Shown here: piece by piece, positions 1 through 43,063 of the stretch
How the letters are laid out: each line of letters begins with the position of its first letter
Numbering within the stretch: position 1 is the first letter of the stretch
Virus record (IMG/VR): IMGVR_UViG_2541047814_000002
Reading direction: 5' to 3' (one strand)
From: a virus
Taxonomy: Duplodnaviria > Heunggongvirae > Uroviricota > Caudoviricetes
DNA: 44,195 bases
Notes under the pieces: model-generated
What the model saw: only the letters and a program-made list of their open reading frames with translations
What the model was told of the DNA's origin: nothing
Database searches by the model: none
Program-made: the position numbers and the translations under genes

Positions 1-91
1 CACAACATCCGAGGACAGCAACACCCGATACTTTTTCCTGGCTTCCAGCAACGGGGTTTCTTCCTCCGTTGCATATACAGCTCACCTTTTT

Positions 92-385
92 TCACCCACG
101 ATTAACCAACAGCCAGACCAGCAGACACGCCACCACCGGCACAGCAAAATCCATCAGGCTTGCCACATCCCAAGCTCGCGGATCAAAACCGCCCCACCAC
201 GGCATATTCATTCGCTTGCCATGCCCGAACATTTCAATCCAGCGATATTCTGCCTGGGTATGTTCACGCGCAATGAAGAACGTACAACCGGCTATCGCTC
301 CGTAAGCCCAGTTTCCGGTAAAAAGACCAACCAGTATCTGCGCAGCCACAGCACAAAGCGCATGAAGTAAGGGGCTTATATCCAT
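92..385 (-). CDS. hypothetical small membrane protein (97 aa) downstream of the tail fiber gene
   Basis: ORF with hydrophobic N- and C-terminal segments; start is 12 nt downstream of the stop of the preceding minus-strand ORF; no recognisable homology. Confidence 0.3.
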   Translation of the reverse strand: MDISPLLHALCAVAAQILVGLFTGNWAYGAIAGCTFFIAREHTQAEYRWIEMFGHGKRMNMPWWGGFDPRAWDVASLMDFAVPVVACLLVWLLVNRG

Positions 386-397
386 TATTTCCTCCTT

Positions 398-676
398 TCA
401 GCTCCATTCCCGAAGCGGTGTTTCCAGCTCCACGACATAATCAGAGAATACAGAAACATCAAACAAGTCATCAAGAATGCGAATGTTGACAAAATAACCG
501 TCATTCCGGACACAGACAGGTTCTCCCTCTTCTGTTACCCCTGTTTCTGTGTAGGTGAAACCAATTTCATCGACTAACAGTTTATTCTGGAGGTCTTCAT
601 CCTCCTCCCAGTCAAGAGATGACAGGAAGGCCTTAAACTGCAGTTTGTCATGAAACTTCAAAGTTAAATCTTTCAT
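398..676 (-). CDS. hypothetical acidic protein (92 aa), translationally coupled to the tail fiber gene
   Basis: Start codon overlaps the stf stop (673..676); occupies the position where lambda has tfa but is much shorter and unrecognised. Confidence 0.35.
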   Translation of the reverse strand: MKDLTLKFHDKLQFKAFLSSLDWEEDEDLQNKLLVDEIGFTYTETGVTEEGEPVCVRNDGYFVNIRILDDLFDVSVFSDYVVELETPLREWS

Positions 677-2733
677 ACGACCTCTTTTAATTGCCTGTCA
701 TTTAATTCTTTATGCCATATGCGGAAATTGCGAATATGGCCAAACAGATGTCGTTCTCCAGTATTCGTCTGCCCTCCAAATCGGATATTTTTATCAGCGG
801 TCACACCATTATATTCACAATAAACTTCATTAACCGCTTTACCATTTGTCACCACATGAAAGTGACCATCAGCTTTTGCAATACATCCAAATGTGGTTTT
901 CTCTGCAAATACATCTGTCGCTGCGCTATTAACATACAAGCCTGAAGGGTTTGACAGACTCATATATAACTTACCACTACCTCTGTTGATTGCTGCAATT
1001 GCTGATTGCCCGGTATTGGCTGCTGCTATATCCCACACGCGGGGTGCGGCGTTTGGTGCAATATCCCAGTTTTTATGAATCTCAAGTAAAAAAGTAAATG
1101 GTAACTTATAAAGATTATTTCTGGTGGGGATACTAACCAAATCACTGGCTCTTGTCGTTGCGCTGCCTCCTGAAATAATAAATGATGATACACACGGCCC
1201 ATTCTCTACTTGTGGGGTGGCAAGATAAATATAGTCACCAGATACTGTTGCCCCACCCCGCTCAGGAGAATACTGTATCTGAGAGCCTATTTTTAACTCA
1301 CCATCAATTGCCTGAATCGTTGCCTCTGCAAAAATCCAGCCTGTGGTCTTATCCTTCCTGACTCGTGCCGTAATTCTGCCGGCAGCCCCACCTGTCATAT
1401 TAATTTCAAGCGTTTGCGTATCAATGTACGCATCGCCAAGAAAAGTTGTTGCACTACCATCATACTTATCAAACCGTATACGTAACCTTACCTGTCGTTC
1501 TGTTTTAAAACGGCATGAGGTTGTCACGTACTTGTTATCGCCTGAGACATCAACTGACTTTGTTGCAGCAATTGATGCCATATTAATAGCCGAAGTTTGC
1601 CCAACCAGAGAATCGTTGCAGACAAACTTTCCATAAGTAAAACCAAAACTATCTGTCCCGGTTTCGGGCACATCCATGTTTGATGACTTCCCCCAGCTGG
1701 CTGGACTTTCCGAATTGAGCATGTAGTTCGTTCTTTGTCCCTCAATAAGCAGGCCATCACACTCAAATCGCGGCTCATTAATTTCCGCCGTTTTCAGTTC
1801 GCCAGATTTGTTGATATATGTTGCCGTTGATGCGCGACTGAAATTAACCTGTTTATCACTGGCGACCTGAACCACATCGTCACCAATAGCTATTTTTTTA
1901 TAGCCCGGAGAAAAACCCGCAATCATATCCAGTGAATCGTTAAACGGTATCCACACATCAGGCAGCGGCGGCACTATATTCGCATAGGGCTCTGCAGTCA
2001 CTTCCGCTGCGACTTCTGCGCGGTCTGCCGCCTTTTCAGCCCGTGTCGCTGCCGACAGAGCCTCATCCTTTTTCTGCCCGGCCTTTGTTGCGTCTGCTGC
2101 GGCCTCCCGCGCTTTTGTGGTGGCGACTCCGGCATTTTCAGCGGCTGACTCTGCATTACGGCGGGAAGCCTCTTCACTGTCTGCGGAGGCTTCTTCTGAC
2201 GCACGGGCATTTGTCTCTGAACGTTCTGCCGCTGTTGCTGCGTTTTGTGCGGCTGTTTTTGAAGAAGCTGCCGCTTTCGCGCTGTTACCTGCATTCGTCT
2301 CTGATGTTTTCGCCGCATTCCTGGACGATGCCGCTGCTGTTTCTGATTTCTTTGCTGCCGCTGCGCTCTGAGAGGCGGCTTCAGCGTTGCGTGCCACCTC
2401 TTCCACCATCTTTTCAAAACGATACAGTGCCTCCGGACGAACATCATCTTCTGTTGCAGCGCCCAGAAAATCATTCAATGTCCCCGGCTTAGAATCCTCA
2501 TACACGGTGATGGCCCCGGCATGTGAAGGCGGAAAACCTTCAACCAGCAGGATAACGCTGTACTGGCCATACTCGACATCCATGCTGTAACGTCCGGCTT
2601 CATCCGGATTTTCTGAGGCCACCGTGTTCACCACAACCGTGGTGCTGTTACGTTTTGCTTTGAGCTGAATGGTGCAGTTCTGTATCGGTTTTCCTGCACC
2701 GTCTTTCAGCACGCCTGAAATCTGTACTGCCAT
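673..2733 (-). CDS. stf: side tail fiber protein (Stf-like) with lambda Stf-type N-terminus, Ala/Ser-rich coiled-coil stalk and divergent C-terminal domain
   Basis: N-terminus MAVQISGVLKDGAGKPIQNCTIQLKAKRNSTTVVVNTV...GRYSMDVEYGQYSVIL matches remembered lambda Stf N-terminal domain; long low-complexity Ala-rich region; ATG at 2731..2733 (ORF track extends to a GTG at 2739). Confidence 0.8.
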   Translation of the reverse strand: MAVQISGVLKDGAGKPIQNCTIQLKAKRNSTTVVVNTVASENPDEAGRYSMDVEYGQYSVILLVEGFPPSHAGAITVYEDSKPGTLNDFLGAATEDDVRPEALYRFEKMVEEVARNAEAASQSAAAAKKSETAAASSRNAAKTSETNAGNSAKAAASSKTAAQNAATAAERSETNARASEEASADSEEASRRNAESAAENAGVATTKAREAAADATKAGQKKDEALSAATRAEKAADRAEVAAEVTAEPYANIVPPLPDVWIPFNDSLDMIAGFSPGYKKIAIGDDVVQVASDKQVNFSRASTATYINKSGELKTAEINEPRFECDGLLIEGQRTNYMLNSESPASWGKSSNMDVPETGTDSFGFTYGKFVCNDSLVGQTSAINMASIAATKSVDVSGDNKYVTTSCRFKTERQVRLRIRFDKYDGSATTFLGDAYIDTQTLEINMTGGAAGRITARVRKDKTTGWIFAEATIQAIDGELKIGSQIQYSPERGGATVSGDYIYLATPQVENGPCVSSFIISGGSATTRASDLVSIPTRNNLYKLPFTFLLEIHKNWDIAPNAAPRVWDIAAANTGQSAIAAINRGSGKLYMSLSNPSGLYVNSAATDVFAEKTTFGCIAKADGHFHVVTNGKAVNEVYCEYNGVTADKNIRFGGQTNTGERHLFGHIRNFRIWHKELNDRQLKEVV

Positions 2734-2743
2734 ATTCACTCCA

Positions 2744-2773
2744 CAAATAAAAAAGGCGCCATTTCTGGCGCCC
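2744..2773 (-). terminator. intrinsic terminator between J and stf
   Basis: Minus-strand hairpin GGCGCC-AGAAAT-GGCGCC (2755..2772) followed by TTTTTTATTT. Confidence 0.45.
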
Positions 2774-2791
2774 GTATCTGGGTTATAAAAT

Positions 2792-5700
2792 TCAACTGAT
2801 ACTGATACCGGCTGTAGATTTCTTCATCACAACAACAAGAAGGTCGCTGATACTGGTCGTTGGCGTCCAGTTATTAGCACCATATGAAGAAACATTGAAA
2901 GTCAGGGTGACATGGCCGTGTCCGGCAGGCATATCAATGACTGATGAAAATACCCTGCTGACATCCGTCGCGGGTTGCTGAAAGATTTCCTGTCCGTTCT
3001 TCAGTACCTGCAGCTTACAGGTTGAATACCAGTATGACTGTTGGTTGTTGCTGTTGAAGTTTTCATGCTTACCCCCACGAAACAGAACGGGGGGGACTAC
3101 TATCTGACGGTCAAAAGCCTGGTCATCGTACACAGTGACCGTTATTGTACCGCTGGCATAACTGCCATTTCTCGGAAAGGCTTTTCCCACCGTTTTGACA
3201 ATATCACCTTCAATCTGGTTAGCTGACAGTTTTCCCAGAATCCGACAGTTCTGATTAATCGTGACGTTGTTGAGCGTCCCGGAGTTCGCGTTCACGTTAC
3301 CGCTGATATCCGCATTTTTCGCAGAAAGTCGACCATCAGGTGTCAGTGAAAACGTTGGGGGATTGCCACCGCTGGTAATGGTGGGAGCCGTCAGATATTT
3401 CAGGAACACTTCGTTCATGAATATCTGATCGCCCTGCCCAACAAACATCGGCTTTGTGTTGCCATTCGCAGGATTAATCATCGCAATCCTGTCCGCCGCC
3501 AGCAGCACCTGACTCTGCATACCGTCAGGAGTATTCTCAACACCGGCACCAATACCCGCGATATAAAGGCGTCCGTCCTGCATCTGCTGCAGCTTCACAG
3601 CCCACATGCTGTTCAGGTTATTATTTGTATCAACCTGAACCTTCTGTATCTGCTGGATCGCTGCACTCTGGTCTTCCAGTTTCTTATTGACGGTCTGCGT
3701 GATTTCATTGCTGACACCCGTAATGGACGTCCTGATTTCAGCCAGGTCAGGCGCAAGCTGACCGTTATCAATCTGCGTCCACAACTCCTGAGCCAGATGG
3801 GTTTTCCCTATCTCTCCTTTGAAAAAATTCAGATAGCCGGATGCATCATCACTCGGCTGGCCAACAGCCTCCACAAATGCCGATTTGCCAACGGTGTTCA
3901 CACTGCGGATGTAAAAATAATAATCATGGCCCGGTTTGATATTGATACTGGCGGCTATCCAGTACAGCGCCGTGCCAAGATAGCGTGCTGTGGTTTCAAC
4001 CTGCCTGATATCCGCAATCCGCTTTTCCGAGAACCAGAACTCAAACTGTACCGTCGGATCATAAACCGCAAGATGCGGCGTGGCGGTTATCTGAAAATAC
4101 CCCGGTGTCAGCTCAATCTGCGACGGCGCTGCCGGTGCGGCAATCCGGAACGATACCGATGCCGGATCGCCCTGCTGCCCCCACGCATTTACCGCCCGGA
4201 CTGTCAGCCTGTAGTTCCCCAGCGCCAGTTGCCTGAAGCGGTATGTGGTTTCCGTCGTCCGGGCCGTGCTGACCAGCCGCTCACTGCCGTCATCCGCTGC
4301 CACGGTCAGGCGAAGCATAAAGCTCACCCCCTTCACCACCTTCGGCGTGTCCCAGCGCGCCAGCACCTGATATTCCCCGCTGTCTGCGGTGACTTCGGCA
4401 GTCAGGTGCTGCACCGCTGGCGGCGTGACACCATTCACCGTGCCGCTCTGGTCGCCGTCAAAGTGCGCCCCGTTATCCACGATGGCCTCTTTTTCCGGTA
4501 CATGCTGCACGGCAGTGATGGCATACGTGCCGTCATCGTTCTCACGGATACTCACACAGCGGAACAGGCGCTGGCGCAACGTTGGCAACTTCAGCCCCCA
4601 CACGCTGTATTCTGCAACGCCGTCAGGAACACGGCTCACTTTTACCTTCACGCCGTCGGTGACGGACTGGACCTCCACGCTGACCGGATTCCCCTGTCCG
4701 TCAGCCAGGCTTATCAGCGTGGTGCCGGAGGATGGCAGCGTGATTTCACGGTCGAGCGTCAGTGTCCGCGTCTGGTTGTTCACCGCCAGCACGCGCCCGC
4801 CGATGCTGATCCCCGCATAGTCATCATCACAGATTTCAATGACATCGCCCGGTACATGGCGAAGCCCTTCTGCACCCACGCTGAAGTCCACGGTCTGCGT
4901 TTCCAGCAGCTCCGTTTTAATCAGCCACAGCCCGGCGCGGTGTGCCTGCCCCCGGCTGGTACAGCCAAAGGCATCCATCTTCGTGACGTTACGACCGTAA
5001 CGGGCAATGGCCTGCGTGTCCTCCACAAGCTCTGTCGCCGTCTCCCAGCCGTTATCCGGGTCAATCCAGTTCACCTCAACGGCATTATGGCGGTCTTTCA
5101 GGGCGCTGAAGCTGTAGCGGAACGGCGCGCCATCATCCGGCATCACCACATTACTGCGGTTATAGGTCCACACCTTATCCGACGGTCGGTCCTGCACGAA
5201 TGTCAGCGTCTGCCCGTTCCATACCGGCATACAGCGCATCGCCGAGCAAAAATCACTGAGCACATCCCACGCCTTGCGCTGTGTGGTCAGGTACGCATTA
5301 CAGGTGATGCGCGGCTCCGTGCCGCCAAAGCCGTCCGGCACTGACTGGTCGCAATTCTGGCCGATGACATACAGCGCCCATTTATCCACATCTGCCGCAC
5401 CAAGACGTTTCCCCATGCCGTAGCGCGGATGGGTCAGCATATCCCACAGACACCAGGCCATGTTGTTGCTGTATGCTGGCTTAAACGTTCCGTCCCAGAT
5501 ACCGCTGTATTGCCGCGTCTGCGGGTTATAGTTCGACGGCACCTGCAGAATGCGCCCGCGAAGATGATAATTACGGCTCACCTGCTGGCTGCCGAACTGC
5601 TCCGAGTCCACCTGTACGCCGACCAGTGCCGTGTTCGGGTAGCACTGTTTCACATCGATGATTTCGGTGTATGACGACCAGAGCGTTTTGTTCTGCAACT

Positions 5701-6274
5701 GGTCTGTGGTGCTGTCCGGCGTCATCCTGCGCATCCGGATATTAAACGGGCGCGGCGGCAGGTTATCCACCACCACCGAGGCCAGATACTGCGACGTGGT
5801 TTTGCCCTTAATGGTGATGTCTTTTTCCGTCACCCAGCCACCGTTACGTTGAATCTGAACCAGCAGGCGGACTTCCGATGGATTCCTGTCCCCCTTTGAG
5901 GTGGTTTCCACCAGTGCCTGCACGCCGAAAGTAAAACGCAGACGGTCAATGTTTGCCGACGTGATGGTCCGGGTGATCGGCGTGTCATATTTCACTTCTG
6001 TACCGAGCACCGTCTCGGAGCCGGAGGATTCAAATCCCTCCGGCGGAGTCTGCTCCTGCTCACCGGCCCGGAACACCACCGTGACGCCGAATATATTGGT
6101 ATTCCCCTCACTGTCCAGCACCGGCGTACTGTTCAGCAGCACGCTTTTTAATCCATCCACCGGACCTTCAACCGGCCCTTCGCTGATGGCGTCTATCACG
6201 CTCAGCATCTGGGATGATTTCAGGTTGTCCTTCGCTTCGCGCGGGGTATGCCCCTTACTGCTGCCTTTACCCAT
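2792..6274 (-). CDS. J: tail tip host-specificity protein J
   Basis: 1160-aa ORF; N-terminus [20 protein letters not shown] and most of the length match remembered lambda J; C-terminal receptor-binding region diverges. Confidence 0.95.
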
Positions 6275-6334
6275 TCCTCATGCTCCATAAACGATAAAAC
6301 CGCCCGGAGGCGGTTTCACATAAAACATTTTGCA

Positions 6335-7006
6335 TCAGCGACCAATCACCACAACCTGACCACCATCCCCTTCGTCTGCCGTGCTGATCTCCTGAGAAAC
6401 CACGCGTGACCCCACGCGCATTTCACCGTACAGAACCGGCAGAACATTGCCCTGGGCAACCATGTTATCCAGTGAGGAGAAATAGGTGTTCTGTTTGCCG
6501 TTATCCGTTGTCTGTGTACGGGGAGTTCTGGCTTTCGGTGCCAGCATCTGCGCCACACCACCGAGCACCATACTGGCACCGAGAGAAAACAGGATGCCGG
6601 TCATACCACCGGCCCCAATGGCTGCCCCCCATGCTGCAAGGGTGGCTCCGGCGGTAAAGAATGATCCGGCAATGGCGGCAGCCCCCAGGACAATCTGGAA
6701 TACGCCACCTGACTTGGCCCCGGCGACTCTGGGAACAATATGAATCACAGCGCCATCAGGCAGAGTCTCATGTAACTGCGCCGTTAACCCGGACGTGCTG
6801 ACGTCCCGCCCGGCAATCCGTACCTGATACCAGCCGTCGCTCAGTTTCTGACGAAACACCGGGAGCTGTGTGGCCAGTGCGCGGATGGCTTCAGCCCCCG
6901 TTTTCACACGAAGGTCGATGCGGCGGCCAAATCGTTGTAAATCCCCGTAAAGGCAGATGCGCGCCATGCCCGGTGACGCCAGAGGGAGTGTGTGCGTCGC
7001 TGCCAT
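6335..7006 (-). CDS. I: tail assembly protein I
   Basis: 223 aa, MAATHTLPLASPGMARICLYGDLQRFGRRIDL... matches lambda I. Confidence 0.9.
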   Translation of the reverse strand: MAATHTLPLASPGMARICLYGDLQRFGRRIDLRVKTGAEAIRALATQLPVFRQKLSDGWYQVRIAGRDVSTSGLTAQLHETLPDGAVIHIVPRVAGAKSGGVFQIVLGAAAIAGSFFTAGATLAAWGAAIGAGGMTGILFSLGASMVLGGVAQMLAPKARTPRTQTTDNGKQNTYFSSLDNMVAQGNVLPVLYGEMRVGSRVVSQEISTADEGDGGQVVVIGR

Positions 7007-7647
7007 TTGTCGGTATACCTCTCTCGTTTACTCAGTTGTTCAGGAATATGGTGCAGCAGCTCGCCGTCACCACAGTAAATAGCGGCATGATTCGGCACCG
7101 ATGAACCAAAGCAGCACAGCAGCACATCGCCCGGCTGCGCCGCTGACAACGGCACCTGATACAGCCCTGTGGCCTCCAGATTATCAAGATAGAGATTCTG
7201 GCCGTTACGCCACCAGTCATCCTCACGATGAAAGTCCGGCATCTCAATCCCCGCCAGATGGTAAGCGTCCCGGAACAGCGTGTAACAGTCCGTCACCCCG
7301 TGCTCAAAGCGCCGCCCGGTGAGATGCGGCACACAGCGGAACTTATGAATCGCCCCCCGGCAGACCAGCCACCACGGCAAATCACTCTGCACCTGCAGCC
7401 GCCGGTCGGCCTCACTCAGCCAGGGCAGACCACCGGGATGACTGTGGACCAGCGCCACAATCTCACCCTGCATCTCTGCCTGCAGCCAGTCCTCCGGAGC
7501 CATCCGGAAATACGCCTCCGGCTCACCGGAGATATTCACGCAGGGAAAATATCTTTCCCCCTCCGGCGCTCTCACCACGAAGCCGCACGACTCCGCTGGC
7601 GCACATCGCCGGGCATGCGCCAGAATCGCTGATTCTGTCTCTGTCAT
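6904..7647 (-). CDS. K: tail assembly protein K (NlpC/P60-type)
   Basis: MTETESAILAHARRCAPAESCGFVV... matches lambda K; overlaps I as in lambda. Confidence 0.9.
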   Translation of the reverse strand: MTETESAILAHARRCAPAESCGFVVRAPEGERYFPCVNISGEPEAYFRMAPEDWLQAEMQGEIVALVHSHPGGLPWLSEADRRLQVQSDLPWWLVCRGAIHKFRCVPHLTGRRFEHGVTDCYTLFRDAYHLAGIEMPDFHREDDWWRNGQNLYLDNLEATGLYQVPLSAAQPGDVLLCCFGSSVPNHAAIYCGDGELLHHIPEQLSKRERYTDKWQRRTHSLWRHRAWRASAFTGIYNDLAAASTFV

Positions 7648-7652
7648 GGGAT

Positions 7653-8351
7653 TTACTGCGAAAGTTTGTTAATGGAAAGGAAGCCGCCAAAGTTGCCGAC
7701 GTTATTGCGAAACTTACAGCCGCTCAGGCATTTGCTGCATTTATCCTTCGTGATATCGGAAGTCGGCTGATCATATTCATCCGCGACCGCCGGACCGTGA
7801 TAACCGCACTCATCACCGCGATAGGTCCAGGTGCAGGTATTAGCCAGCATGATGCGCCCCGGAAAAACGGCACCATCCGTTTCCGTCGGTGTGGACAGTA
7901 CAAAGGAGGCACTCACCGCGCTCAGTTCGCTGCACTGCTCGATGCGCCAGCGGCTGATCACCTCCTGCTCCGGATCGGCGTCGCTGTTTCCGTTGACGAA
8001 GTTCACCGCATCCAGAAAACGGGCGTAAACCTTACGCCTGACCACCGTTCCGCCGACCAGACTCTGCAGATCTTCCACCATCCCGGTGACCATACCGTAC
8101 AGGTTAGAAACCGTCAGCGTGGGGCGCGTACTGGTGCCTTTGCCATTCAGTTCAAAACTACTCCCCTGAATGGGATACGGCTGATACTGTCGCCCCTGCC
8201 AGGTGACCGGCTCACCTTTTTCGTTCTGCTCATTACAGAAAAAATAACGTTCTCCACCGACCTCTGTCAGATCGATTTCCCAGAGCACCACGCTGGCCGA
8301 CTGCTCCGCACGGGTGCATTCATTCAATGTTTCCTGCCGGATATCCTGCAT
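7653..8351 (-). CDS. L: minor tail protein L
   Basis: 232 aa, lambda L-like sequence with Cys cluster; gene order M-L-K-I-J. Confidence 0.9.
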   Translation of the reverse strand: MQDIRQETLNECTRAEQSASVVLWEIDLTEVGGERYFFCNEQNEKGEPVTWQGRQYQPYPIQGSSFELNGKGTSTRPTLTVSNLYGMVTGMVEDLQSLVGGTVVRRKVYARFLDAVNFVNGNSDADPEQEVISRWRIEQCSELSAVSASFVLSTPTETDGAVFPGRIMLANTCTWTYRGDECGYHGPAVADEYDQPTSDITKDKCSKCLSGCKFRNNVGNFGGFLSINKLSQ

Positions 8352-8680
8352 CAGTTCACCACCTGTTCAAACTCTGCGCTGAACTCAACACGCAGCATAC
8401 TGACCCGCGACGACCATTTTGCGCAGGTCACCTTTATCTGCCTGTAACCATAAGGCGGCGTCCACAGAAAGGCCTTCCAGCCCCCGTGCTCAGCCAGAAA
8501 CGACTCCAGCGCCGTGGCCTCCTCACGGGAGACAGACAGCGTCACGCTGTACGTTTTCAGGTCAGCGTTCAGCCCGGCAGGCGCACGCTGGGAATAGCCA
8601 TCACCAAAGCGCACCTCCCTGACGGAAGGAGCCGATGTCACATCCATCCCGGGTTTCACTTTCCAGCGGAAGGTTTTCAT
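8351..8680 (-). CDS. M: minor tail protein M
   Basis: 109 aa matching lambda M; stop overlaps L start. Confidence 0.9.
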   Translation of the reverse strand: MKTFRWKVKPGMDVTSAPSVREVRFGDGYSQRAPAGLNADLKTYSVTLSVSREEATALESFLAEHGGWKAFLWTPPYGYRQIKVTCAKWSSRVSMLRVEFSAEFEQVVN

Positions 8681-9813
8681 CGTCCACCTCCGGAGAACAG
8701 ACCACCATCGCGCATCTGTGCCTGGATTTCATCACGGGCACCCTTGCGGGCCATGTCATACACCGCCTTCATCATCTGTGGACCTGGCAGACCATTCGTA
8801 CCGTCGTTCTGAATCACCACGTTGTTGTTCTGCTCAAACCTGATACCCTCTGAACGCCGCATTTGCGCCGGACTTCCGGTGCCACCGACATAACCGCCGG
8901 TGGCATAGCCGCGCATCAGCCGGTAGAGATTTCCCACGCCAATCCGGCTGGTTGCCTCCTTCGTGAAGACAAATTCACCACGGTGAACAATCCCCGCTGG
9001 CTCATATTTGCCGCCGGTTCCCGTAAATCCTCCGGTTGCAAAATGGAGTTTCGCCGCAGCGGCCTGAATGGCTGTACCGCCTGACGCGGATGCGCCGCCA
9101 CCAACAGCCCCGCCAATAGCGCTGCCGATACTCCCGACAATCCCCACCATTGCCTGCTTAAGCAGAATTTCTGTCATCATGGACAGCACGGAACGGGTGA
9201 AGCTGCGCCAGTTCTGTTCACTGCCGGTCAGCATCGCCGCCATATTCTGCGCAATACCATCAAAGGTCTGCGTGGCAGCACTTTTAACCTGCGACATACT
9301 GTCCGTGGCACTCTCTTCCCACTCACTCCAGCCGGACTTCAGGCCTGCCATCCAGTTCCCGCGAAGCAGGTCTTCAGCCGCCCAGGTCTTTTTCTGCTCT
9401 GACATGACGTTATTCAGCGCCAGAGGATTATCGCCATACTGTTCCTTCAGGCGCTGTTCCGTGGCTTCCCGTTCTGCCTGCCGGTCAGTCAGCCCCCGGC
9501 TTTTCGCATCAATAGCGGCCCGTTTTGCCCGTTGCTGCTGTGCGAATTTATCCGCCTGCTGCGCCAGCGCGTTCAGGCGCTCCTGATACGTAACCTTGTC
9601 GCCAAGTGCAGCCAGCTGGCGTTTGTACTCCAGCGTCTCATCTTTATGCGCCAGCAGGGATTTCTCCTGTGCAGACAGCTGGCGACGTTGCGCCGCCTCC
9701 TCCAGTACCGCGAACTGACTCTCCGCCTTCCACAAATCCCGGCGCTGCTGGCTGATTTTCTCATTTGCTCCGGCATGCTTCTCCAGCGTCCGGAGTTCAG
9801 CCTGAAGCGTCAG
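8677..9813 (-). pseudogene. H: tail tape measure protein H, C-terminal fragment (gene split by IS insertion)
   Basis: Translation ...LTLQAELRTLEKHAGANEKISQQRRDLWKAESQFAVLEE... to GGLFSGGGR matches the C-terminal half of lambda H; frame is closed by a stop at the IS boundary (9814..9816). Confidence 0.9.
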
Positions 9814-9907
9814 CTATGAGACGACAATAACTCAGTCCGCCTGGCGCCGATTATTCTGGCCGGTTTTGTAACCTGAGTGTCATTTACATGATCCAACAGG
9901 AAATGGC

Positions 9908-11407
9908 GTGACGCTCAATACTTCTCAGGTCAGTTACTATATGACTCAGCGTAAGAAAGGTATAACTCAGCATATCTCGGCCATGAAGGCTGGTATCTCA
10001 GTCCGTTCTGGTCGTCGGATCGAAAAAGGAGAGTGGGCAAAAAACAGTGTTCGGCACTGGCGCACACGCAAAGATCCTCTGGAAGCTGTGTGGGACAGCA
10101 TGCTTGTTCCTCTGTTGAAAGAGAGGCCGGCTCTGACACCAACAACTCTGCTGGAGATGCTACAGGATAAATATCCCGGCCAGTACCCCAACAGCCTTCG
10201 AAGAACAATGCAACGGCGGGTCCGCGAATGGAAGCTACAGTATGGTGCAGAGCAGGAGGTCATGTTCCGCCAGCGACATCAGCCCGGTCTGCGAGGTCTG
10301 TCGGACTTTACTGAACTGAAAGGTGTAGTTGTCACCATCGCCGGTAAGTTGTTGGCGCATAAGTTGTATCACTTCCGTCTGGAATGGAGCCACTGGAGCT
10401 GGATGCGGGTTGTGCTGGGTGGTGAGAGCTTCTCTGCTCTGGCTGAAGGTCTGCAGGAAGCCCTCGGACAACTGGGCGGAGTGCCGGTAGAACATAAAAC
10501 GGACAGCCTGAGGGCAGCATGGAAACAACAGGGCGAAGATGGACGCCGCGAGCTGACTGAGCGTTATGCTGCTCTCTGTCAGCACTACGGAATGCAGGGC
10601 GTACACAATAATGCCGGTCGGGGCCACGAAAATGGCTCGGTTGAAAGTGCCCACGGACATCTGAAAAGGCGTATCTGTCAGGCGCTGATACTGCGGGGCA
10701 GTAACGACTTCAGCACCATAGAAGAATATCAGGCCTTCATCACTCAGCAGGTTATGCGGCACAACCGTAACAATCAGGATCTGGTCAAGGAAGAACGTCT
10801 TCATCTGAAACCGCTGCCGCTTCGTCGCAGTGCTGACTATGATGAGCTGACTGTGAGGGTTAGCCGCAGCAGTACCATCAATGTGAAGCACGTCGTCTAC
10901 AGCGTACCTTCCCGGCTTGTAGGTCAACTGTTACGGGTCCGGTTATGGGACGATCGTCTGAGCTGTTACGTTGGCAGCAGCGAGGTCATGAGCTGCCCAC
11001 GTGTCAGACCAGAAAAAGGGAAGACGCGGGCCCGTCGTATCGACTTCCGACATGTGATCGACAGTCTGGCAAAAAAGCCCGGTGCGTTCTGCCATGCAAC
11101 GCTGAGAAATGACATCCTGCCAGACGATGAATGGCGGAGGCTGTGGCGTCGCTTATGTAATCATCTGGAACCCGACATGGCAGGCAGGCTGATGGTACAT
11201 GCTCTGAAACTGGCTGCAGGATACGACGATATCTCAGTCGTGGCAAAAGGTATGGAGCAGATGCTGAATACCCCGGGAAACGTGGATCTGCACCGGCTGA
11301 TGCGCTTCCTGGGTATAAAGGAAAAGGCGTTGCCGGTAGTCAATGTGAAACAGCATAACCTGAGCAGTTATGAGCAACTACTGCGTGGCAAGGGAGGTTC
11401 GCAGTGA
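9908..11407 (+). CDS. istA: IS21-family transposase IstA
   Basis: 499-aa ORF with N-terminal HTH-like region and transposase-like core; followed by overlapping istB; exact start (GTG at 9908 or downstream ATG) uncertain. Confidence 0.8.
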   Translation: MTLNTSQVSYYMTQRKKGITQHISAMKAGISVRSGRRIEKGEWAKNSVRHWRTRKDPLEAVWDSMLVPLLKERPALTPTTLLEMLQDKYPGQYPNSLRRTMQRRVREWKLQYGAEQEVMFRQRHQPGLRGLSDFTELKGVVVTIAGKLLAHKLYHFRLEWSHWSWMRVVLGGESFSALAEGLQEALGQLGGVPVEHKTDSLRAAWKQQGEDGRRELTERYAALCQHYGMQGVHNNAGRGHENGSVESAHGHLKRRICQALILRGSNDFSTIEEYQAFITQQVMRHNRNNQDLVKEERLHLKPLPLRRSADYDELTVRVSRSSTINVKHVVYSVPSRLVGQLLRVRLWDDRLSCYVGSSEVMSCPRVRPEKGKTRARRIDFRHVIDSLAKKPGAFCHATLRNDILPDDEWRRLWRRLCNHLEPDMAGRLMVHALKLAAGYDDISVVAKGMEQMLNTPGNVDLHRLMRFLGIKEKALPVVNVKQHNLSSYEQLLRGKGGSQ

Positions 11408-12159
11408 GCAATATCCATCACCTTGAACGCAGCCTGCGTAAACTACGCCTGACACGAGTTGGAGCTGAATGGCACGCTCTGGAAAAACGAGCACTGGCAG
11501 AAGGCTGGACACCATCGCGCTATCTTCTGACGCTATGCAATGAAGAACTCCTGTGGCGCGAGAGTGAAAAACTGCGTCGTTATAAAAAGGAGGCCCGGTT
11601 GCCAGTTGCCAAAACGCTAAGCGAATACGACTTCAGTCAGGTGCCGGAACTGAATGGAGCTCAGTTCCGGCAACTCTGTGAAACGACAGACTGGGTTGAT
11701 GCAGGAGAAAACGTTCTGCTGTTCGGAGCCAGCGGGTTGGGGAAAAGCCATCTGGCGGCAGCGATCGTGGATGGCGTAGTAGGCCAGGGCTACCGGGCCC
11801 GGTTCTACAGCGCAGGAGAGTTGTTGCAGGAACTACGTAAAGCCAGAGCGCAGTTGAAACTGAATGAGCTGCTACTGAAACTGGATCGCTACCGGGTGAT
11901 AGTGGTGGATGATCTTGGCTATGTCAAACGCGACAGCGCCGAAACGGGAGTACTGTTCGAGTTAATAGCGCATCGCTATGAACGTGGGAGCCTGGTGATA
12001 ACCAGTAACCATCCGTTCAGCATGTGGGGCAGCATCTTCGTGGATGAGACTATGGCGGTGGCGGCGGCAGACCGGCTGATCCATCACGGATATATGTTCG
12101 AACTGAAAGGTGAAAGCTACAGGAAAAAGACAGCGAAGGCAGTAACAAGCGCGACTTGA
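11404..12159 (+). CDS. istB: IS21-family ATP-binding helper protein IstB
   Basis: 251 aa with Walker A GASGLGKSHLA and Walker B VIVVDDLGY; ATGA overlap with istA stop. Confidence 0.9.
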   Translation: MSNIHHLERSLRKLRLTRVGAEWHALEKRALAEGWTPSRYLLTLCNEELLWRESEKLRRYKKEARLPVAKTLSEYDFSQVPELNGAQFRQLCETTDWVDAGENVLLFGASGLGKSHLAAAIVDGVVGQGYRARFYSAGELLQELRKARAQLKLNELLLKLDRYRVIVVDDLGYVKRDSAETGVLFELIAHRYERGSLVITSNHPFSMWGSIFVDETMAVAAADRLIHHGYMFELKGESYRKKTAKAVTSAT

Positions 12160-12224
12160 TGTCGCACTGAAGGGTGCGGCCAGTATAGTTGGCGCGAGTC
12201 GGCAAAACTAGTTGACGTCTAATA

Positions 12225-13654
12225 GTCAGCAGGGCAGCATGAGCACTGTCTTCCTGACGATCGCCCGCAGACACCTTCACGCCGGACTGTTTCGGCTTTT
12301 TCAGCGTCGCTTCATAATCCTTTTTCGCCGCCGCCATCAGCGTGTTGTAATCTGCCTGCAGGATTTTCCCGTCTTTCAGTGCCTTGTTCAGTTCTTCCTG
12401 ACGGGCGGTATATTTCTCCAGCGGTGTCTGCAGCCGTTCGTAAGCCTTCTGCGCCTCTTCGGTATATTTCAGCCGTGATGCTTCGGTATCGCTCTGCTGC
12501 TGCGCATTTTTGTCCTGTTGACTCTGCTGTTCAGCCTTCTTTCGGGCGGCTTCAAGCGCAAGACGGGCCTTTTCACGATCATCCCAGTAACGCGCCCGCG
12601 CTTCATCGTTAACAAAATAATCATCCTTGCGCAGATTCCAGATGTCGTCCGCTTTCTTAAACGCAGCCTCTGCCTTAATCAGCATCTCCTGAGCGGTATC
12701 AGGACGACCAATATCCAGCACCGCATCCCACATGGATTTGAATGCCCGTGCTGTCCTGTCTGCCCAGGTTTCCAGCGTGCCCATGTTCTCTTTCAGGCGT
12801 CGGGTCTGGTCATCAAACCCTTTCGTTGCGGCCTCGTTCGCCGCCTGCAATGCCCCGGATTCATCGCCGGAACGCTGCAACTGAGCAACATACGCAATCT
12901 GCTCCGCCGTTACGTTATGGAACTGGCGCGCCATCGCCGTCAGCCCCGACGTCGGGTCAGTGGTCAGCTTCCCGAAGGCTTCAGCGACCTTGTCCACCTC
13001 CACGCCGGATGCAGAGGAGAAACGCGCCACACTCTGGCTGATGGATGCAATCTGAGCCTCACCGCTTACTCCCGCCTTAACCAGTGCGCTGAGTGACTCG
13101 CTGGTCTGGTTAAACGTCAGCCCTGCCGCCTGCCCGGCTCTGGACAGGACCAGCATACGATCTGCCGTCAGACCCGACTGATTGCCGGAAAGGACCAGCG
13201 TTTTGTTGAAATCGGACAGGGTTGAGTTACCCTGATACCAGGCATACGCCAGCGCACCGGTCGCCACCGCCAGCGAGGTGGCCCCGACCATCGGCAGGGT
13301 GATCGCACCGGCAAGCCCCCGGAACATGGGGATCATCCCGCCGAAGGAGTCCTTAACCTGACCACCCTGTTGCAGCAGGATCAGCCACGGGCTTTGCCCG
13401 CCTGCAAGCTGCGTGGCCACGTCGGTGAACTGTGCAGGCAGCATACGCATGGCGGCTTTATACTGCCCGACGGAAATCCCCGCTTTCTGTGCAGCCAGCG
13501 CCTGTCGGCTCAGCGACTGTTCAACGACTGCCGCTGTTTTTTTCGCATCACTTTCCGTACCGGAAAAATGACGCCTGACTCTGGCCATCTGCTCGTCAAA
13601 TCTGGCCGCATCCAGACTTAAATCAACGACCAGATCGCCTACCGGTTCAGCCAT
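12225..13654 (-). pseudogene. H: tail tape measure protein H, N-terminal fragment (gene split by IS insertion)
   Basis: MAEPVGDLVVDLSLDAARFDEQMARVRRHF... through ...SAHAALLT matches the lambda H N-terminal part; the ORF-track ORF 12050..13654 continues 57 codons into IS sequence (read-through artefact). Confidence 0.9.
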
Positions 13655-18472: not shown

Positions 18473-19978
18473 TCATGGCATGGCCATGAGCATTTTCACG
18501 TCCGCATCACCGTCTGCTGACGTCTGTGCCACGCCACCCTGTACCGCTGCCGGTGAATGGTTCGCCATGAAATGTTCAAACATGGCGGTTGTGGATGCAG
18601 AGACCGGTTCTGCCTTACCTGATCCCGCAGCCAGCACAGCCCGGGCGCTCTCCACTGTCATTCCCGGGCAGGCAGCCAGCTGTTCAGCCTGCGCCTCAGC
18701 CCCTTTTGCCTCATCCAGTGCCATGATCTGATCACGGAGTGATGGTCCGGCATCCGCCTGCGGTGAAGCAGCCAGGATCGGGCGGGCTTTTTCCACCGTC
18801 ATCTCCGGCATCGCCGCCAGCGTTGCCGCCAGTTGTTCACGACCGTTCGCTTCTTCACACACCATAATGCGATCGGCTTCACTCTGCGTGGATGCCACCG
18901 GCTGCTGCGGTGCCGCCGCGGCCAGAATCGCCCGGGCCTGTTCAACGCTCATGCCCTGTTGTCCTGCCAGCATCGTGGCAAGCTGTTCACGTCCTTTCGC
19001 TTCCTGGCATGTCAGGATCCCCATCACTCGCTGGTTCTCCTGCGCGGCGGCTTCCGTTGCAGTTAATTGCGGCATAGTGCCTCCTCTGACATTACTGTTC
19101 AGCGCCGTGGCCATCACACTGATGGCATCCGACGCATTGATTAATTCATCCGCCAGCCCGGCCTCAATGCCGGACTGACCTTCAAAAACGGCAGCCTCTG
19201 TTCCCGTGACGGCATCAACAGACAGACCGGTATACATCGCCACTTTTTCGGCAAACATCCGGCGCGCCGCATCAATCCGCTGCTGCATGTCCTGGCGAAC
19301 CTCTGCCGGCAACGCTTCAAACTGATTGCCATCCACCTTGTGCGCCCCTGAGTAAATCAGCGTGATATCCACACCGGCCTGCGCCAGATGACCGGCATAG
19401 CTGACATGGCTCATCATCACGCCAATGGAGCCGATACGGGATGTCTGGGTAACCAGCCGTCGGGAGCAGGCCGACGCCAGCAGCATGGCTGCAGAACAGG
19501 CCGTGTCATTGCACAGTGCCCAGACCGGCTTCTGCTGACGGAGGCGGTAAATCATGTCAGCGCAGTCAAACGCGCCGGCGGCCTGCCCGCCCGGACTGTC
19601 AATGTCCAGCAGTACGCCCCGCACCTGGCTATCCGCCATTGCCTGCTGAAGACAGGCGACAATGCCGTCATAGCCTGTCATTCCGGAAAATGGCCGCATA
19701 CCACCCAGCCGGTGCACCAGCGTGCCGGTCACCGGCAGTACAGCAATACCGTTCACCACCCGGTAAACACGGGCCGGTCGTTTACCTCCGGCCATGTACT
19801 CGTCCGTTTCAGCCAGCATTCCGGGAGCATCAAACTGTACCTGCTGTTGTGGTACCGAAAGACTTGCTGCCCCCATCTCGCGCCCGAGCGCGCAAAAGAA
19901 AACCCGCGCATAGGCGGGCTCCAGAAGCAGCGGTTCATTGAATGCTGCGGCAATAATGTGTGAAAGATTACGTCTCAC
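18473..19978 (-). CDS. C: head maturation protease C (S49 family) with nested scaffold Nu3 region
   Basis: N-terminal protease domain matches lambda C (AFNEPL.LEPAYARVFFCAL, VWAL.ND.CSA, GSIGVMM.H); C-terminal part carries three tandem Nu3-like repeats. Confidence 0.9.
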   Translation of the reverse strand: MRRNLSHIIAAAFNEPLLLEPAYARVFFCALGREMGAASLSVPQQQVQFDAPGMLAETDEYMAGGKRPARVYRVVNGIAVLPVTGTLVHRLGGMRPFSGMTGYDGIVACLQQAMADSQVRGVLLDIDSPGGQAAGAFDCADMIYRLRQQKPVWALCNDTACSAAMLLASACSRRLVTQTSRIGSIGVMMSHVSYAGHLAQAGVDITLIYSGAHKVDGNQFEALPAEVRQDMQQRIDAARRMFAEKVAMYTGLSVDAVTGTEAAVFEGQSGIEAGLADELINASDAISVMATALNSNVRGGTMPQLTATEAAAQENQRVMGILTCQEAKGREQLATMLAGQQGMSVEQARAILAAAAPQQPVASTQSEADRIMVCEEANGREQLAATLAAMPEMTVEKARPILAASPQADAGPSLRDQIMALDEAKGAEAQAEQLAACPGMTVESARAVLAAGSGKAEPVSASTTAMFEHFMANHSPAAVQGGVAQTSADGDADVKMLMAMP

Positions 19979-21560
19979 GTGGTGTTGTCTCCTCTTCCGG
20001 CCTGCGACTCTCCGCTATCTGCTGCTGATACGCCTGCTCTATCCACACCGGACGTGAGAGTCCGGCTTTTTGCCGCTCAGCAGATTCCCTGACCTGCTGG
20101 CGGAAAATGTCCTGATAATCCTCGCCCATCAGCGCCAGCTCTTTCTCATACGTGCTCAGTCCGGCCTCAATGCGCATCACTGATTCCTGGACTTCCTTGA
20201 GCCCGTCAATGGCCATTCTTCCGGCACCAATCCACTCTGCCCGTGACCAGGCTGATCGCGCCTGATAAAAATCAAAACGTGCCCGTGGCGGACGAATAAT
20301 CCCCCGAAGAAGTGCCTCTTCCAGCCAGCAGGAAAACATCTGCGTGGCCAGCCGGGCCGCAATAAATTTTCGCCGCCCCATAAAATAGCGCCACGACTCA
20401 TTGGCGGAGGCGCGGGCACTTGAGTAACTGACCTTCGAGTAATCACGGGACAACTGTTCGTAGGAAACGCCAAGACCGGCGGCGATATACCGCAGCAGCG
20501 CCTGTTCAAGCGCAGAAAATCCATTGTCTGAATCCTGCGCAGTCTGTAGTTTCAGATCATCACCAGGGAAAAGGTGCGGAATTTTGACACCGCCCAGTGT
20601 CACGTTATTCGTGTCATACCAGCTGGAAAACTTCTCCAGAATATTAATAAGCGGATTATCCTTCTGCTCCTGTGGCGCGCCGGCGATATATTCAAAGGCC
20701 TTTTCGGTATCAAGTTCACTTTCAATCGTCGCTGCATACATCGCCTTCACTATGGCCGACTGAAGCTGTGTTGCCTGCAGGGAATCGAGCATCTTCAGCC
20801 GTTCCATGACGCTGTAAAACTGATTAGCCCCACGGGTCTGCCCGTCCTCCACCGGCTCGAAAATATGCAGCATGGCCGGACGCCCGGTGGGAAGTTCACG
20901 CGGGATCCGTTCCCATCGTCCACTACCAGAGAACGGAAAATCATCCTCACAGATATGGTACGCGACGGCACGGCCATATCGATCGACCTCCACACCGGCC
21001 CGCAGAAAACGGTTCCCCATACCGTGTCCAGGCGTGTCCACCCGTTTCGGACTCACGGCTTTAAAACGCGTACGGAATAACTGCGTGGTTTCCGTATCCC
21101 AGACCGGCTGCACAAAGATTTCGCCGTTAAACGCATGAACGCCCACACCTTCACGGATAAATTCCGTGAACGTGCGTTTTCCTTCCACGTCGATCTCGCC
21201 AAACATCCCTTCGGCGTATTCCGACCAGGCCGCCTCCACCTCATCGACAAAGCTTTTTGCTGCGGTCTCCCGCATCCCCAGCCAGCGCCAGTTCGGACGG
21301 TAGCTGATCAGAAACATATGCCCGACAATGTGATCCTTATGCAGAGCCACCGCATTAGCCGCTATTCCGTTATTGCGCACCAGATCATCTGCCCGGGCAT
21401 TCCCCAGACGCAACGCGGGCAGCAGGGCCGCATCGGCACTCTGCGCCGGTGGCAACCACTCAGCCATTTGCCCGCCAAATCCTGCACCGCCCCCGTTGTA
21501 GCTGAGACTCTCACGAAGCGGAACGCCGTTCACATCAATCAGGACAGGCGTTCGTTTCAT
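19968..21560 (-). CDS. B: portal protein B
   Basis: MKRTPVLIDVNGVPLRESLSYNGGGAGFGGQMAEW... matches lambda B; ATG at 21558..21560 overlaps W stop. Confidence 0.95.
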   Translation of the reverse strand: MKRTPVLIDVNGVPLRESLSYNGGGAGFGGQMAEWLPPAQSADAALLPALRLGNARADDLVRNNGIAANAVALHKDHIVGHMFLISYRPNWRWLGMRETAAKSFVDEVEAAWSEYAEGMFGEIDVEGKRTFTEFIREGVGVHAFNGEIFVQPVWDTETTQLFRTRFKAVSPKRVDTPGHGMGNRFLRAGVEVDRYGRAVAYHICEDDFPFSGSGRWERIPRELPTGRPAMLHIFEPVEDGQTRGANQFYSVMERLKMLDSLQATQLQSAIVKAMYAATIESELDTEKAFEYIAGAPQEQKDNPLINILEKFSSWYDTNNVTLGGVKIPHLFPGDDLKLQTAQDSDNGFSALEQALLRYIAAGLGVSYEQLSRDYSKVSYSSARASANESWRYFMGRRKFIAARLATQMFSCWLEEALLRGIIRPPRARFDFYQARSAWSRAEWIGAGRMAIDGLKEVQESVMRIEAGLSTYEKELALMGEDYQDIFRQQVRESAERQKAGLSRPVWIEQAYQQQIAESRRPEEETTPRET

Positions 21561-21763
21561 AACCTCACTCCCAGCGGACGACGGCGACACCGGGTTGTCC
21601 CCAGTACCGACTCCGCATCATTGATCGCCCGGTTAAGCTCATCCAGAGAAGCCGCCGTATATTCAATTCTGCGACCATCTTTCTGGACAGACACCACCCG
21701 TTTACCGGTTAATAAATCAAGGCGCGCCTGACGCAGCGCCTGCAGTTCAGCGACTGTAACCAT
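21557..21763 (-). CDS. W: head-tail joining protein W
   Basis: 68 aa with TGKRV..VQKDGRR.E.TA.S motif as in lambda W. Confidence 0.9.
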   Translation of the reverse strand: MVTVAELQALRQARLDLLTGKRVVSVQKDGRRIEYTAASLDELNRAINDAESVLGTTRCRRRPLGVRL

Positions 21764-27612: not shown

Positions 27613-28037
27613 AGCTGTGTGACGAAGTAACCACTCTTAACAGCATAACCAATTTTTTACGTACGTAAACTACTAAATGATATTTGTGAGAATGCCACCG
27701 AGTGTTCAAAACACCACCACAAATGCATAAGAAAACTTCAACAAATAACCAGTTAATAATTTCCAATGTTATTTTTAGTTTGTTTAAATTAAGCTAAAGA
27801 ATTATAGAGCACTTATAAATAAGTGCCATTAATATAAATTAGCTAATAGATTTATTTTTGTTCAGACAAGAGCCATGAATAGGATTAGATAGAAAAGGTT
27901 CAGATAAAAATAGAGATCTACTTCACAAATTAAATGAGAAACTAAAACTTACATCTTGAAATAATCACATTGATTAGATGAATATTTATCGCGCAGTGAC
28001 ATCATTTTTTAATAATAGTTCAAAAAAAGGGCGTACA

Positions 28038-29120
28038 ATGAAAAAATTAACAGTGGCAATTTCTGCTGTAGCTGCATCAGTACTGATGGCGATGTCTGCT
28101 CAGGCAGCTGAAATTTATAATAAAGACAGTAACAAGCTGGATCTATACGGGAAAGTTAATGCCAAGCACTACTTCTCCTCTAATGATGCAGATGATGGTG
28201 ATACTACTTATGCCCGTCTTGGCTTCAAAGGTGAAACCCAAATCAACGATCAACTGACTGGTTTCGGTCAGTGGGAATATGAATTCAAAGGCAACCGTGC
28301 TGAATCTCAAGGTTCTTCCAAAGACAAAACCCGTCTTGCATTTGCAGGCCTGAAATTTGGTGATTACGGCTCAATCGATTACGGCCGTAACTACGGTGTA
28401 GCATACGACATCGGTGCGTGGACTGACGTTCTGCCAGAATTCGGTGGTGATACCTGGACCCAAACAGATGTGTTCATGACTGGTCGCACTACTGGTGTTG
28501 CAACTTATCGTAACAACGACTTCTTTGGTCTGGTCGATGGCCTGAACTTTGCTGCTCAGTATCAGGGTAAAAATGACCGCACTGACGTAACTGAAGCCAA
28601 TGGTGATGGTTTCGGTTTCTCCACTACTTATGAGTATGAAGGATTCGGCGTGGGTGCAACCTATGCTAAATCAGATCGCACTGACGGTCAGGTCGCCTAT
28701 GGTAAGAGCAAATTCAATGCCTCCGGCAAAAATGCGGAAGTATGGGCTGCAGGCCTGAAATATGATGCGAACAATATCTATCTGGCTACCACATATTCTG
28801 AAACTCAGAATATGACCGTTTTTGGTAATAACCATATTGCAAACAAAGCACAAAACTTTGAAGCAGTAGCACAATATCAGTTTGACTTCGGTCTGCGTCC
28901 ATCTGTTGCTTACCTTCAGTCAAAAGGTAAAGACCTTGGTGTTCATGGTGACCGAGACTTAGTCAAGTATGTCGATGTCGGTGCTACTTACTACTTTAAT
29001 AAAAACATGTCCACTTTTGTTGATTACAAAATCAACTTAATTGACGATAGTAAGTTTACCAAAACAGCTGGTATTGATACCGACGACATCGTCGCTGTAG
29101 GTCTGGTTTATCAGTTCTAA
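28038..29120 (+). CDS. nmpC: outer membrane porin, NmpC/Lc (OmpC-family) type
   Basis: 360 aa with signal peptide [38 protein letters not shown] start and C-terminal VAVGLVYQF; located between Q and S as in DLP12 and PA-2. Confidence 0.9.
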
Positions 29121-42826: not shown

Positions 42827-43063
42827 ATGTCTCGACTAATCACTTTACAGGACTGGGCTAAAGAAGAATTTGGGGACTTAGCACCAAGTGAGCGAGTTCT
42901 GAAAAAATACGCGCAAGGGAAAATGATGGCCCCACCCGCTATAAAAGTTGGTCGCTACTGGATGATTGACCGAAATTCCCGTTTTGTAGGAACGCTTGCA
43001 GAACCGCAACTCCCAATAAACGCAAACCCAAAACTCCAAAGGATAATCGCTGATGGCTGCTAG
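42827..43063 (+). CDS. xis: excisionase-like protein (non-lambda Xis type)
   Basis: 78 aa immediately upstream of and overlapping int; strong RBS AAGAGGAGG; sequence unlike lambda Xis but in the canonical position. Confidence 0.6.
   Translation: MSRLITLQDWAKEEFGDLAPSERVLKKYAQGKMMAPPAIKVGRYWMIDRNSRFVGTLAEPQLPINANPKLQRIIADGC

Follow-up and report, generated by a model that had tools for sequence, protein, structure and literature searches.

The head gene operon of the window (the whole stretch of 44,195 nucleotides that was analysed, a Caudoviricetes record from IMG/VR) contains a homologue of the lambda C gene in which a module of approximately 45 residues occurs in three consecutive copies, and this tandem triplication is confirmed. 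The gene is gene 5 of Escherichia phage 21, for which the GenBank record (M81255) has marked the three repeats as Tri boxes since the early 1990s (1993). The triplication is, therefore, already known and not a new discovery; our analysis adds to the M81255 annotation the distribution of the module, the range of its copy number, its age, the selection on it and its predicted fold. As the best joint explanation we favour, with reasonable though not high confidence, that the Tri boxes of gene 5 and gene 6 represent an old, fixed triplication of a self-folding docking module, of which the favoured partner would be the E-type capsid protein.

Gene 5, the nested gene 6 and the Tri boxes

Gene 5 (18473..19978, minus strand) is an open reading frame of 501 aa with a GTG start codon that overlaps the end of the portal gene. 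Its product matches the Pfam family Peptidase_S49 (PF01343; E 3.7e-35), with a domain at aa 146-293 (19100..19543, minus strand) scoring 121.6 bits (cut-off 24.9), and the PHROGs family phrog_53, “head maturation protease” (E 1.7e-228). Lambda C also possesses an S49 domain; it is ca. 54% identical to the window protein over aa 3-346, and in the protein alignment the S49 part is colinear without long gaps. Upstream lies the portal gene (19968-21590, minus strand), which corresponds in the alignment to the M81255 portal gene and carries the annotation “phage portal protein” in matching genomes, and downstream follow, both on the minus strand, a lambda-D-type decoration gene (HDPD, PF02924; 18089-18436) and an E-type major capsid gene (Phage_cap_E, PF03864; 17003-18031). 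This order of portal, C-like, D-like and E-like genes is shared with lambda and places gene 5 where a C/Nu3 gene is located. The suggestion of the earlier note that this is a C/Nu3 scaffold region is thus borne out, by the S49 domain as well as by the gene position, and from its sequence we regard the gene 5 product as a predicted prohead protease of the S49 family whose C-terminal part is a scaffold region. For the IS21-family insertion, direct or inverted repeats marking its ends were not resolved.

In a tblastn search the best match among phage records was Escherichia phage 21 (M81255.1; 99.8% over 501 aa). The complete 8134 bp of this “Bacteriophage 21 head gene operon” (positions 1-8134) correspond to window positions 24549-16416 at 99.914% identity (blastn), so that a window coordinate equals 24550 minus the M81255 position, and the annotated gp5 translation (CDS 4572..6077) has zero amino-acid differences from the window protein. 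Besides gene 5, M81255 annotates a nested, in-frame gene 6 (5475..6077), within which three repeat_regions are labelled “function unknown; putative”: the “Tri1 box” (5542-5645), the “Tri box” (5682-5792) and the “Tri3 box” (5823-5936). The protein, the nested gene 6 start and the three annotated repeats are the same in the window, without any sequence difference. The paper behind this record is presumably Smith & Feiss (Gene, 1993).

Gene 6 (18473..19075, minus strand; taken from the M81255 CDS) is a predicted Nu3 analogue, i.e., a scaffolding protein of 200 aa in frame with gene 5 and starting at Met302. Its in-frame internal start is preceded by a Shine-Dalgarno sequence, GGAGG (19082..19086, minus strand; RBS 5464-5468 in M81255), where the minus strand reads agaGGAGGcactATG and the aligned lambda counterpart, at lambda coordinate 5342, cAGGAGGgcgaATG. 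Directly before Met302 (window position 19075) stands agaGGAGGcact, and before Met309 of lambda (5342) cAGGAGGgcga; in the protein alignment Met302, with GGAGG-n4-ATG, falls on lambda Met309, with AGGAGG-n4-ATG. In J02459, nu3 is annotated from 5132 (201 aa), where the Shine-Dalgarno sequence is poor. Counted from the starts with a Shine-Dalgarno sequence, the scaffold would comprise 200 aa in the window vs. 131 aa in lambda. Gene 6 is a putative separate scaffold protein made from an internal in-frame start.

Projected onto the window, the Tri boxes lie at 19008-18905, 18868-18758 and 18727-18614 and coincide with units that were found independently. All three units are on the minus strand: unit 1 (18887-19042; aa 313-364) encloses the Tri1 box and is the positional counterpart of the single copy of lambda, unit 2 (18746-18886; aa 365-411) encloses the Tri box, and unit 3 (18599-18745; aa 412-460), in which the KGRE loop is degenerate (KGAE), encloses the Tri3 box. 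The three motif copies reported earlier at 18617-19030 are confirmed; this span lies inside that of the units and approximates the 18614-19008 covered by the Tri boxes. In local protein alignments the unit pairs score 85-101, compared to 25 ± 5 after shuffling (z 12-16; none of 2000 shuffles scored as high). A non-circular test was provided by a profile HMM constructed from 56 single-copy relatives only, which, when run on the window protein, finds three domains at aa 317-358 (69.0 bits), 370-408 (59.0 bits) and 417-452 (50.5 bits), whereas 200 shuffled versions of the 200-aa tail score 7.0 bits at most. A compositional artefact as the source of the repeat was also considered; these profile matches relative to the shuffles, together with the purifying selection discussed below, speak against it. 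The DNA of the units is ca. 70-74% identical over partial stretches only. This similarity is significant for the adjacent pairs, with 71/101 matching positions for units 1 and 2 (z 10.6) and 44/60 for units 2 and 3 (z 5.1), and weak for units 1 and 3 (31/42; z 2.4).

Copy number, age and selection

Lambda C (J02459/LC730321) is a protein of 439 aa with exactly one unit (aa 356-404), compared to three in the window gene, and both the single copy in lambda and the excess length of ca. 60 aa that had been proposed are correct: the window protein is 62 aa longer. This difference results from two extra units (96 aa) less a 36-aa linker, rich in Ser, Thr, Ala and Asp, that lies between the Nu3 start and the unit in lambda and is absent from the window protein. 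The lambda unit is closest to unit 1 (57% identity), with which it has the N-terminal helix RVMGIL in common. Most phages possess one copy, as lambda does: this holds for 57 of the 59 full-length proteins (at least 380 aa) among the best 150 matches of the module; of the remaining two, one has two copies (P0163) and the other three (P0093).

The earlier note regarded the triplication as a repeat expansion that is prone to slippage and could alter capsid assembly. Indeed, the copy number varies among relatives, with one copy in lambda, two, three or four in others. In E. coli prophages with the same gene family and module, followed by D-like and E-like genes, two-copy forms (P0022, P0016/P0018, H160) and a four-copy form (P0026/L008) differ from the window in this respect. 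P0022 combines units 1 and 2 in a clean in-register hybrid, as would be expected of unequal recombination, and H160 (E. coli O157:H7 strain 7636) has lost exactly the 49 aa of unit 2, so that 70% of the query is covered. The units of the four-copy form are more uniform (74-84% amino acid identity) and are detected by Tandem Repeats Finder (period 138, 3.7 copies, 77% matches). In the three-copy lineage of the window, however, neighbouring units are only 46-50% identical at the protein and ca. 70% at the DNA level, and Tandem Repeats Finder reports no array at the repeats in the window, because the units are too diverged. P0022, P0016/P0018 and P0026/L008 come from metagenome and genome fragments. 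A homology search with the 200-aa tail, which yielded mostly truncated gene calls on short contigs, served to find variants, whereas the copy-number statistics were taken from the profile search of representative proteins described below.

The stability of the three-copy form within E. coli also argues against slippage. At a threshold of at least 90% identity, 1866 out of the 5426 complete genomes of E. coli possess the three-copy gene, often more than once per genome, and of the 1872 E. coli records with the repeat region, 1871 have a full-length best place (at least 80% covered). Among the matches listed there are two deletion variants, i.e., H160 and H159 (GN02270), the latter with a 19-aa deletion inside unit 2 and still 89% of the query covered. 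The prophage of H160 is decayed and its capsid gene is a pseudogene; consequently, the two-copy E. coli forms (P0022, P0016, H160) say little about how well the loss of a unit is tolerated.

A comparison with a Salmonella relative bears on the age of the triplication. Units at the same position are 83, 73 and 59% identical (units 1, 2 and 3, respectively), which exceeds the 46-50% between neighbours within one protein. Since each unit is closer to its positional counterpart than to its neighbours, the triplication predates the split from the Salmonella relative. A comparison of the window with an E. coli allele of 95% identity gives a pN/pS of 0.15 for the repeats and of 0.13 for the protease part, although these values are based on small counts (13 synonymous and 6 non-synonymous differences). 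The repeats are thus apparently under purifying selection, like the protease domain. Phage 21, a long-studied and viable lambdoid phage, has the identical protein, and the decoration and major capsid genes of the window share their Pfam families with lambda D and E, so that neither these nor the pN/pS values bear out an altered capsid assembly. A recent, slippage-prone expansion with a copy number that changes capsid assembly is, therefore, largely refuted and very improbable. The sequence comparisons rather point to a triplication that is old, fixed and selected, with rare recombinational losses and a younger expansion in one lineage. Hence, the earlier interpretation is partly supported: it was right about a triplication relative to lambda, but slippage and an altered capsid assembly find no support.

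Distribution and predicted fold of the module

The consensus of the module comprises ca. 45 residues, D-x-I-L-A-x-x-E-A-K-G-R-E-x-L-A-x-x-L-A-x-x-P-G-M-T-V-E-x-A-x-x-x-L-A-A-A-P. A profile built from 15 diverse units and searched against 1.84 billion representative proteins matches 1469 clusters at E ≤ 1e-3. In the 57 single-copy full-length proteins mentioned above the unit is located 35-65 aa from the C-terminus, and the sequence that follows is far less conserved than the unit itself. In a few short scaffold-like proteins the module occurs twice, within surrounding sequences that are unrelated, which points to independent duplications. Stand-alone scaffold genes of ca. 130 aa (P0089, P0092) were also considered, but these lie no more than ca. 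100 nt from the end of a contig and are indistinguishable from nested calls on truncated C genes. On two short contigs the gene for the module protein is followed by an HDPD gene and a further gene, which is Phage_cap_E in one and has no family recorded in the other. The module is the best-conserved element of C/Nu3-type scaffold regions, usually present in one copy and occasionally in two to four.

No Pfam family covers the unit, and searching the PDB sequences with the 200-aa scaffold yielded a chance match only (E 1.7). For a single unit AlphaFold2 predicts a compact bundle of three helices (residues 2-10, 19-26 and 33-42; pLDDT 81.7, pTM 0.60), and in the model of the 200-aa scaffold this three-helix pattern appears three times, with a pLDDT of 70-80 in each unit. 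Between the units the pLDDT drops below 50 at residues 57-63, and it averages 62 over the 10 residues that separate units 2 and 3. The pTM of the 200-aa model is 0.26, which implies that the units have no fixed packing relative to each other and also makes whole-chain Foldseek comparison meaningless; a Foldseek search of this model against the PDB gave nothing at E ≤ 0.001. Among the predicted viral structures of BFVD, Foldseek matched S49 prohead proteases and scaffolds from phages that are unrelated, a cyanophage among them, at TM 0.73-0.77. These models suggest that each unit is an autonomous three-helix mini-domain and that flexible linkers connect the units like beads on a string. In a title cited in PMC11922011, Medina et al. 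(2011) describe lambda gpNu3 as intrinsically disordered, which is not easily reconciled with a folded mini-domain.

Positions of the module that are invariant or nearly so carry mainly hydrophobic residues or Ala and resemble core positions, and the charged loop E-A-K-G-R-E is conserved as well. In the window this loop is changed to ANGRE in unit 2 and to AKGAE in unit 3. Such degeneration of the candidate contact loops, together with the missing 36-residue linker of lambda, could be taken to mean that the extra units are mainly spacers, which replace this low-complexity linker and tune the length or volume of the scaffold without adding binding sites. Units 2 and 3, however, keep the full hydrophobic core pattern and their 59 and 50.5 bits against the single-copy profile, they are under purifying selection, and their positional counterparts in Salmonella are 73 and 59% identical. 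Conservation of the fold would not be expected of a mere spacer, and we consider such a role unlikely.

The stretch L-A-x-x-P-G-M-T-V-x-x-A-x-x-I-L resembles the consensus of helix-hairpin-helix (HhH) motifs, which would make the units nucleic-acid-binding elements. The Pfam family HHH (PF00633) indeed matches aa 427-450 with E 0.097, and one of the 15 units reaches E 0.0023; however, the former match, with 13.0 bits, falls short of the gathering cut-off (24), and no match exists for 14 of the 15 units. Moreover, the second Gly of the hairpin is replaced by Thr or Ser, and the RuvA matches listed by name concern domain III, a protein-binding three-helix bundle, and not the HhH domain. Scaffolding protein, furthermore, is removed from the head before the DNA enters. 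An HhH function is, therefore, the least probable of the readings considered here and can practically be set aside.

A proposed docking role for the units and its parallels in other scaffolds

Since the protease and the scaffold share the unit region, we propose that it has a role in docking. Most likely, the region common to gp5 and gp6 would be a docking element by which scaffold and protease co-assemble inside the growing shell. The contact we favour would be made with the inner face or the N-arm of the E-type major capsid protein, via the surface loop E-A-K-G-R-E. In line with such a partner, lambda Nu3 interacts with E in two-hybrid tests (PMC3224144), and on one of the two short contigs described above Phage_cap_E comes after the HDPD gene. 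Three copies would render the scaffold of the phage 21 type trivalent, and after assembly the protease would degrade the unit region, as in lambda. In view of the substitutions ANGRE and AKGAE, units 2 and 3 may not be equivalent binders.

The tail that follows the units is relevant to the choice of partner. It covers aa 461-501 (18476..18598, minus strand) and consists of one predicted helix (TTAMFEHFMANHS), an acidic stretch of low confidence and a terminal LMAMP; in the AlphaFold2 model of the 200-aa protein the helix spans residues 160-173, and pLDDT is below 50 at residues 174-195 and 197-200. In relatives the tail is 35-65 aa long and weakly conserved, with a “hydrophobic-x-x-x-M” motif. 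In the scaffolds of P22 and the herpesviruses the determinant that binds the capsid resides at the extreme C-terminus. By analogy, shell binding of this type would in the window be a task of the tail rather than of the units, which counts against docking of the units to the shell. The units would then be docking modules for self-association, between scaffolds or between scaffold and protease, or for the portal. Consistent with this, all relatives possess, at a conserved position behind the units, a tail containing a short helix, and two-hybrid experiments showed that lambda Nu3 interacts with E, with C and with itself, while incorporation of the portal requires Nu3 (PMC3224144). The tail is, however, poorly conserved next to the unit. 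We regard this division of labour as possible, though less probable than not. As the partner of the units we still favour the capsid protein, with self-association or portal binding nearly as likely.

A more general proposal is offered as tentative. The Tri box may be an uncharacterised, self-folding three-helix “scaffold docking” domain that S49-protease/Nu3-type scaffolds in ca. 1500 sequence clusters have in common, in phages of enterobacteria as well as of cyanobacteria. The number of copies, one to four, apparently reached through several duplications that were independent of each other, would determine the valency of scaffold and protease in their contact with an E-type shell or the portal, and thereby the stoichiometry. 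As a discovery the triplication has small value, since roughly one in three complete E. coli genomes carries the three-copy gene, and the repeats have been known since the early 1990s. Its residual value lies in the repeated unit, which is better conserved than any other part of lambda-type scaffolding proteins and falls outside the Pfam families. The natural series with one, two, three and four copies could be used to probe the effect of scaffold valency on procapsid assembly and on packaging of the protease.

Several known systems resemble the proposed arrangement. In predicted fold class and beads-on-a-string layout the units are similar to tandem three-helix-bundle modules, such as the staphylococcal protein A domains, GA modules and UBA/CUE domains. 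The nested pair of gene 5 and gene 6 can be likened to herpesvirus UL26/UL26.5, a protease-scaffold pair with a common C-terminus of which the protease is co-packaged (general knowledge and PMC11922011). No sequence or fold match to the P22-type coat-binding helix-turn-helix or to the herpesvirus pair was obtained for the scaffold or the unit of the window. By analogy, the C-terminal domain of the P22 scaffolding protein is nonetheless a small helical scaffold element that recruits it to the capsid protein, as proposed for the unit (general knowledge and PMC11922011). The P22 and herpesvirus elements, however, are single and situated at the extreme C-terminus, whereas the element in the window is internal, repeated and, in the model, a three-helix bundle.

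Copy-number variants and unit-like segments

A relative of the window's prohead protease/scaffold gene carries four of the ~45-residue units (L008; positions 1-1043 of contig ABNWJB010000046.1, GCA_032727965.1). Its last three units are far more similar to each other (74-84% at the amino acid level, about 75% at the DNA level), and Tandem Repeats Finder (TRF) described the repeats as 3.7 copies with a period of 138. Because these three units are so much alike, a separate, younger expansion or homogenisation of units is suggested for this sister lineage. The locus of E. coli O157:H7 strain 7636 (NZ_CP038421.1, 2123856-2127169) has two units, unit 2 being gone as a stretch of exactly 49 amino acids. 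A truncated major capsid pseudogene adjoins this two-copy allele, and the deletion is therefore placed in a decaying prophage.

Within the protease domain of the window protein, the segment of amino acids 242-256 (window 19211-19255), FAEKVAMYTGLSVDA, with FAQKVSAYTGLSVQV as its lambda counterpart, bears a weak likeness to the unit's helix-turn-helix core, LA..LA..PGMTVE.A; its match to the unit scored 1.0 bit and was not significant. Three lambda-type C proteins in the representative library (P0120, P0122, and P0130) are 582, 535, and 844 amino acids long, respectively. They have unrelated C- or N-terminal extensions past the usual end and are probably frameshift or gene-fusion calls.

Identity and other genes of the prophage

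Window 19200-44195 shows 100% identity to Escherichia phage PhiR63_2 (PV340574.1), whose host is E. coli ECOR13, and a head gene 100% identical to that of the window occurs in ATCC 11775, the type strain of E. coli. The prophage contains a full-length Gram-negative porin gene on the plus strand (27978-29120; Porin_1, E 2.2e-151), labelled OmpD/NmpC/OmpC in matching phage records, and a lambda-type integrase gene (43053-44195) that reaches the window end.

The minus-strand tail tape-measure gene (8677-13654) appears to be in two pieces, i.e., an N-terminal TMP_2 part (12050-13654) and a Tape_meas_lam_C part (8677-9735). Two plus-strand ORFs separate these parts, one of 499 amino acids (9908-11407) matching the Mu-transposase C-terminal domain and one of 251 amino acids (11404-12159) matching IstB_IS21 (E 9.5e-62). 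This pair looks like an IS21-family insertion, which would render the prophage tail-defective.

The start of lambda nu3

In lambda (J02459) the nu3 start is annotated at 5132, giving a product of 201 amino acids, and the Shine-Dalgarno sequence there is poor. A strong AGGAGG-n4-ATG is located at 5342 (Met309). Judged from the sequence, a 131-aa Nu3 looks like a better-supported lambda product than the 201-aa form; the Met309 start is the exact alignment partner of the start of gene 6, the nested scaffold gene of phage 21.
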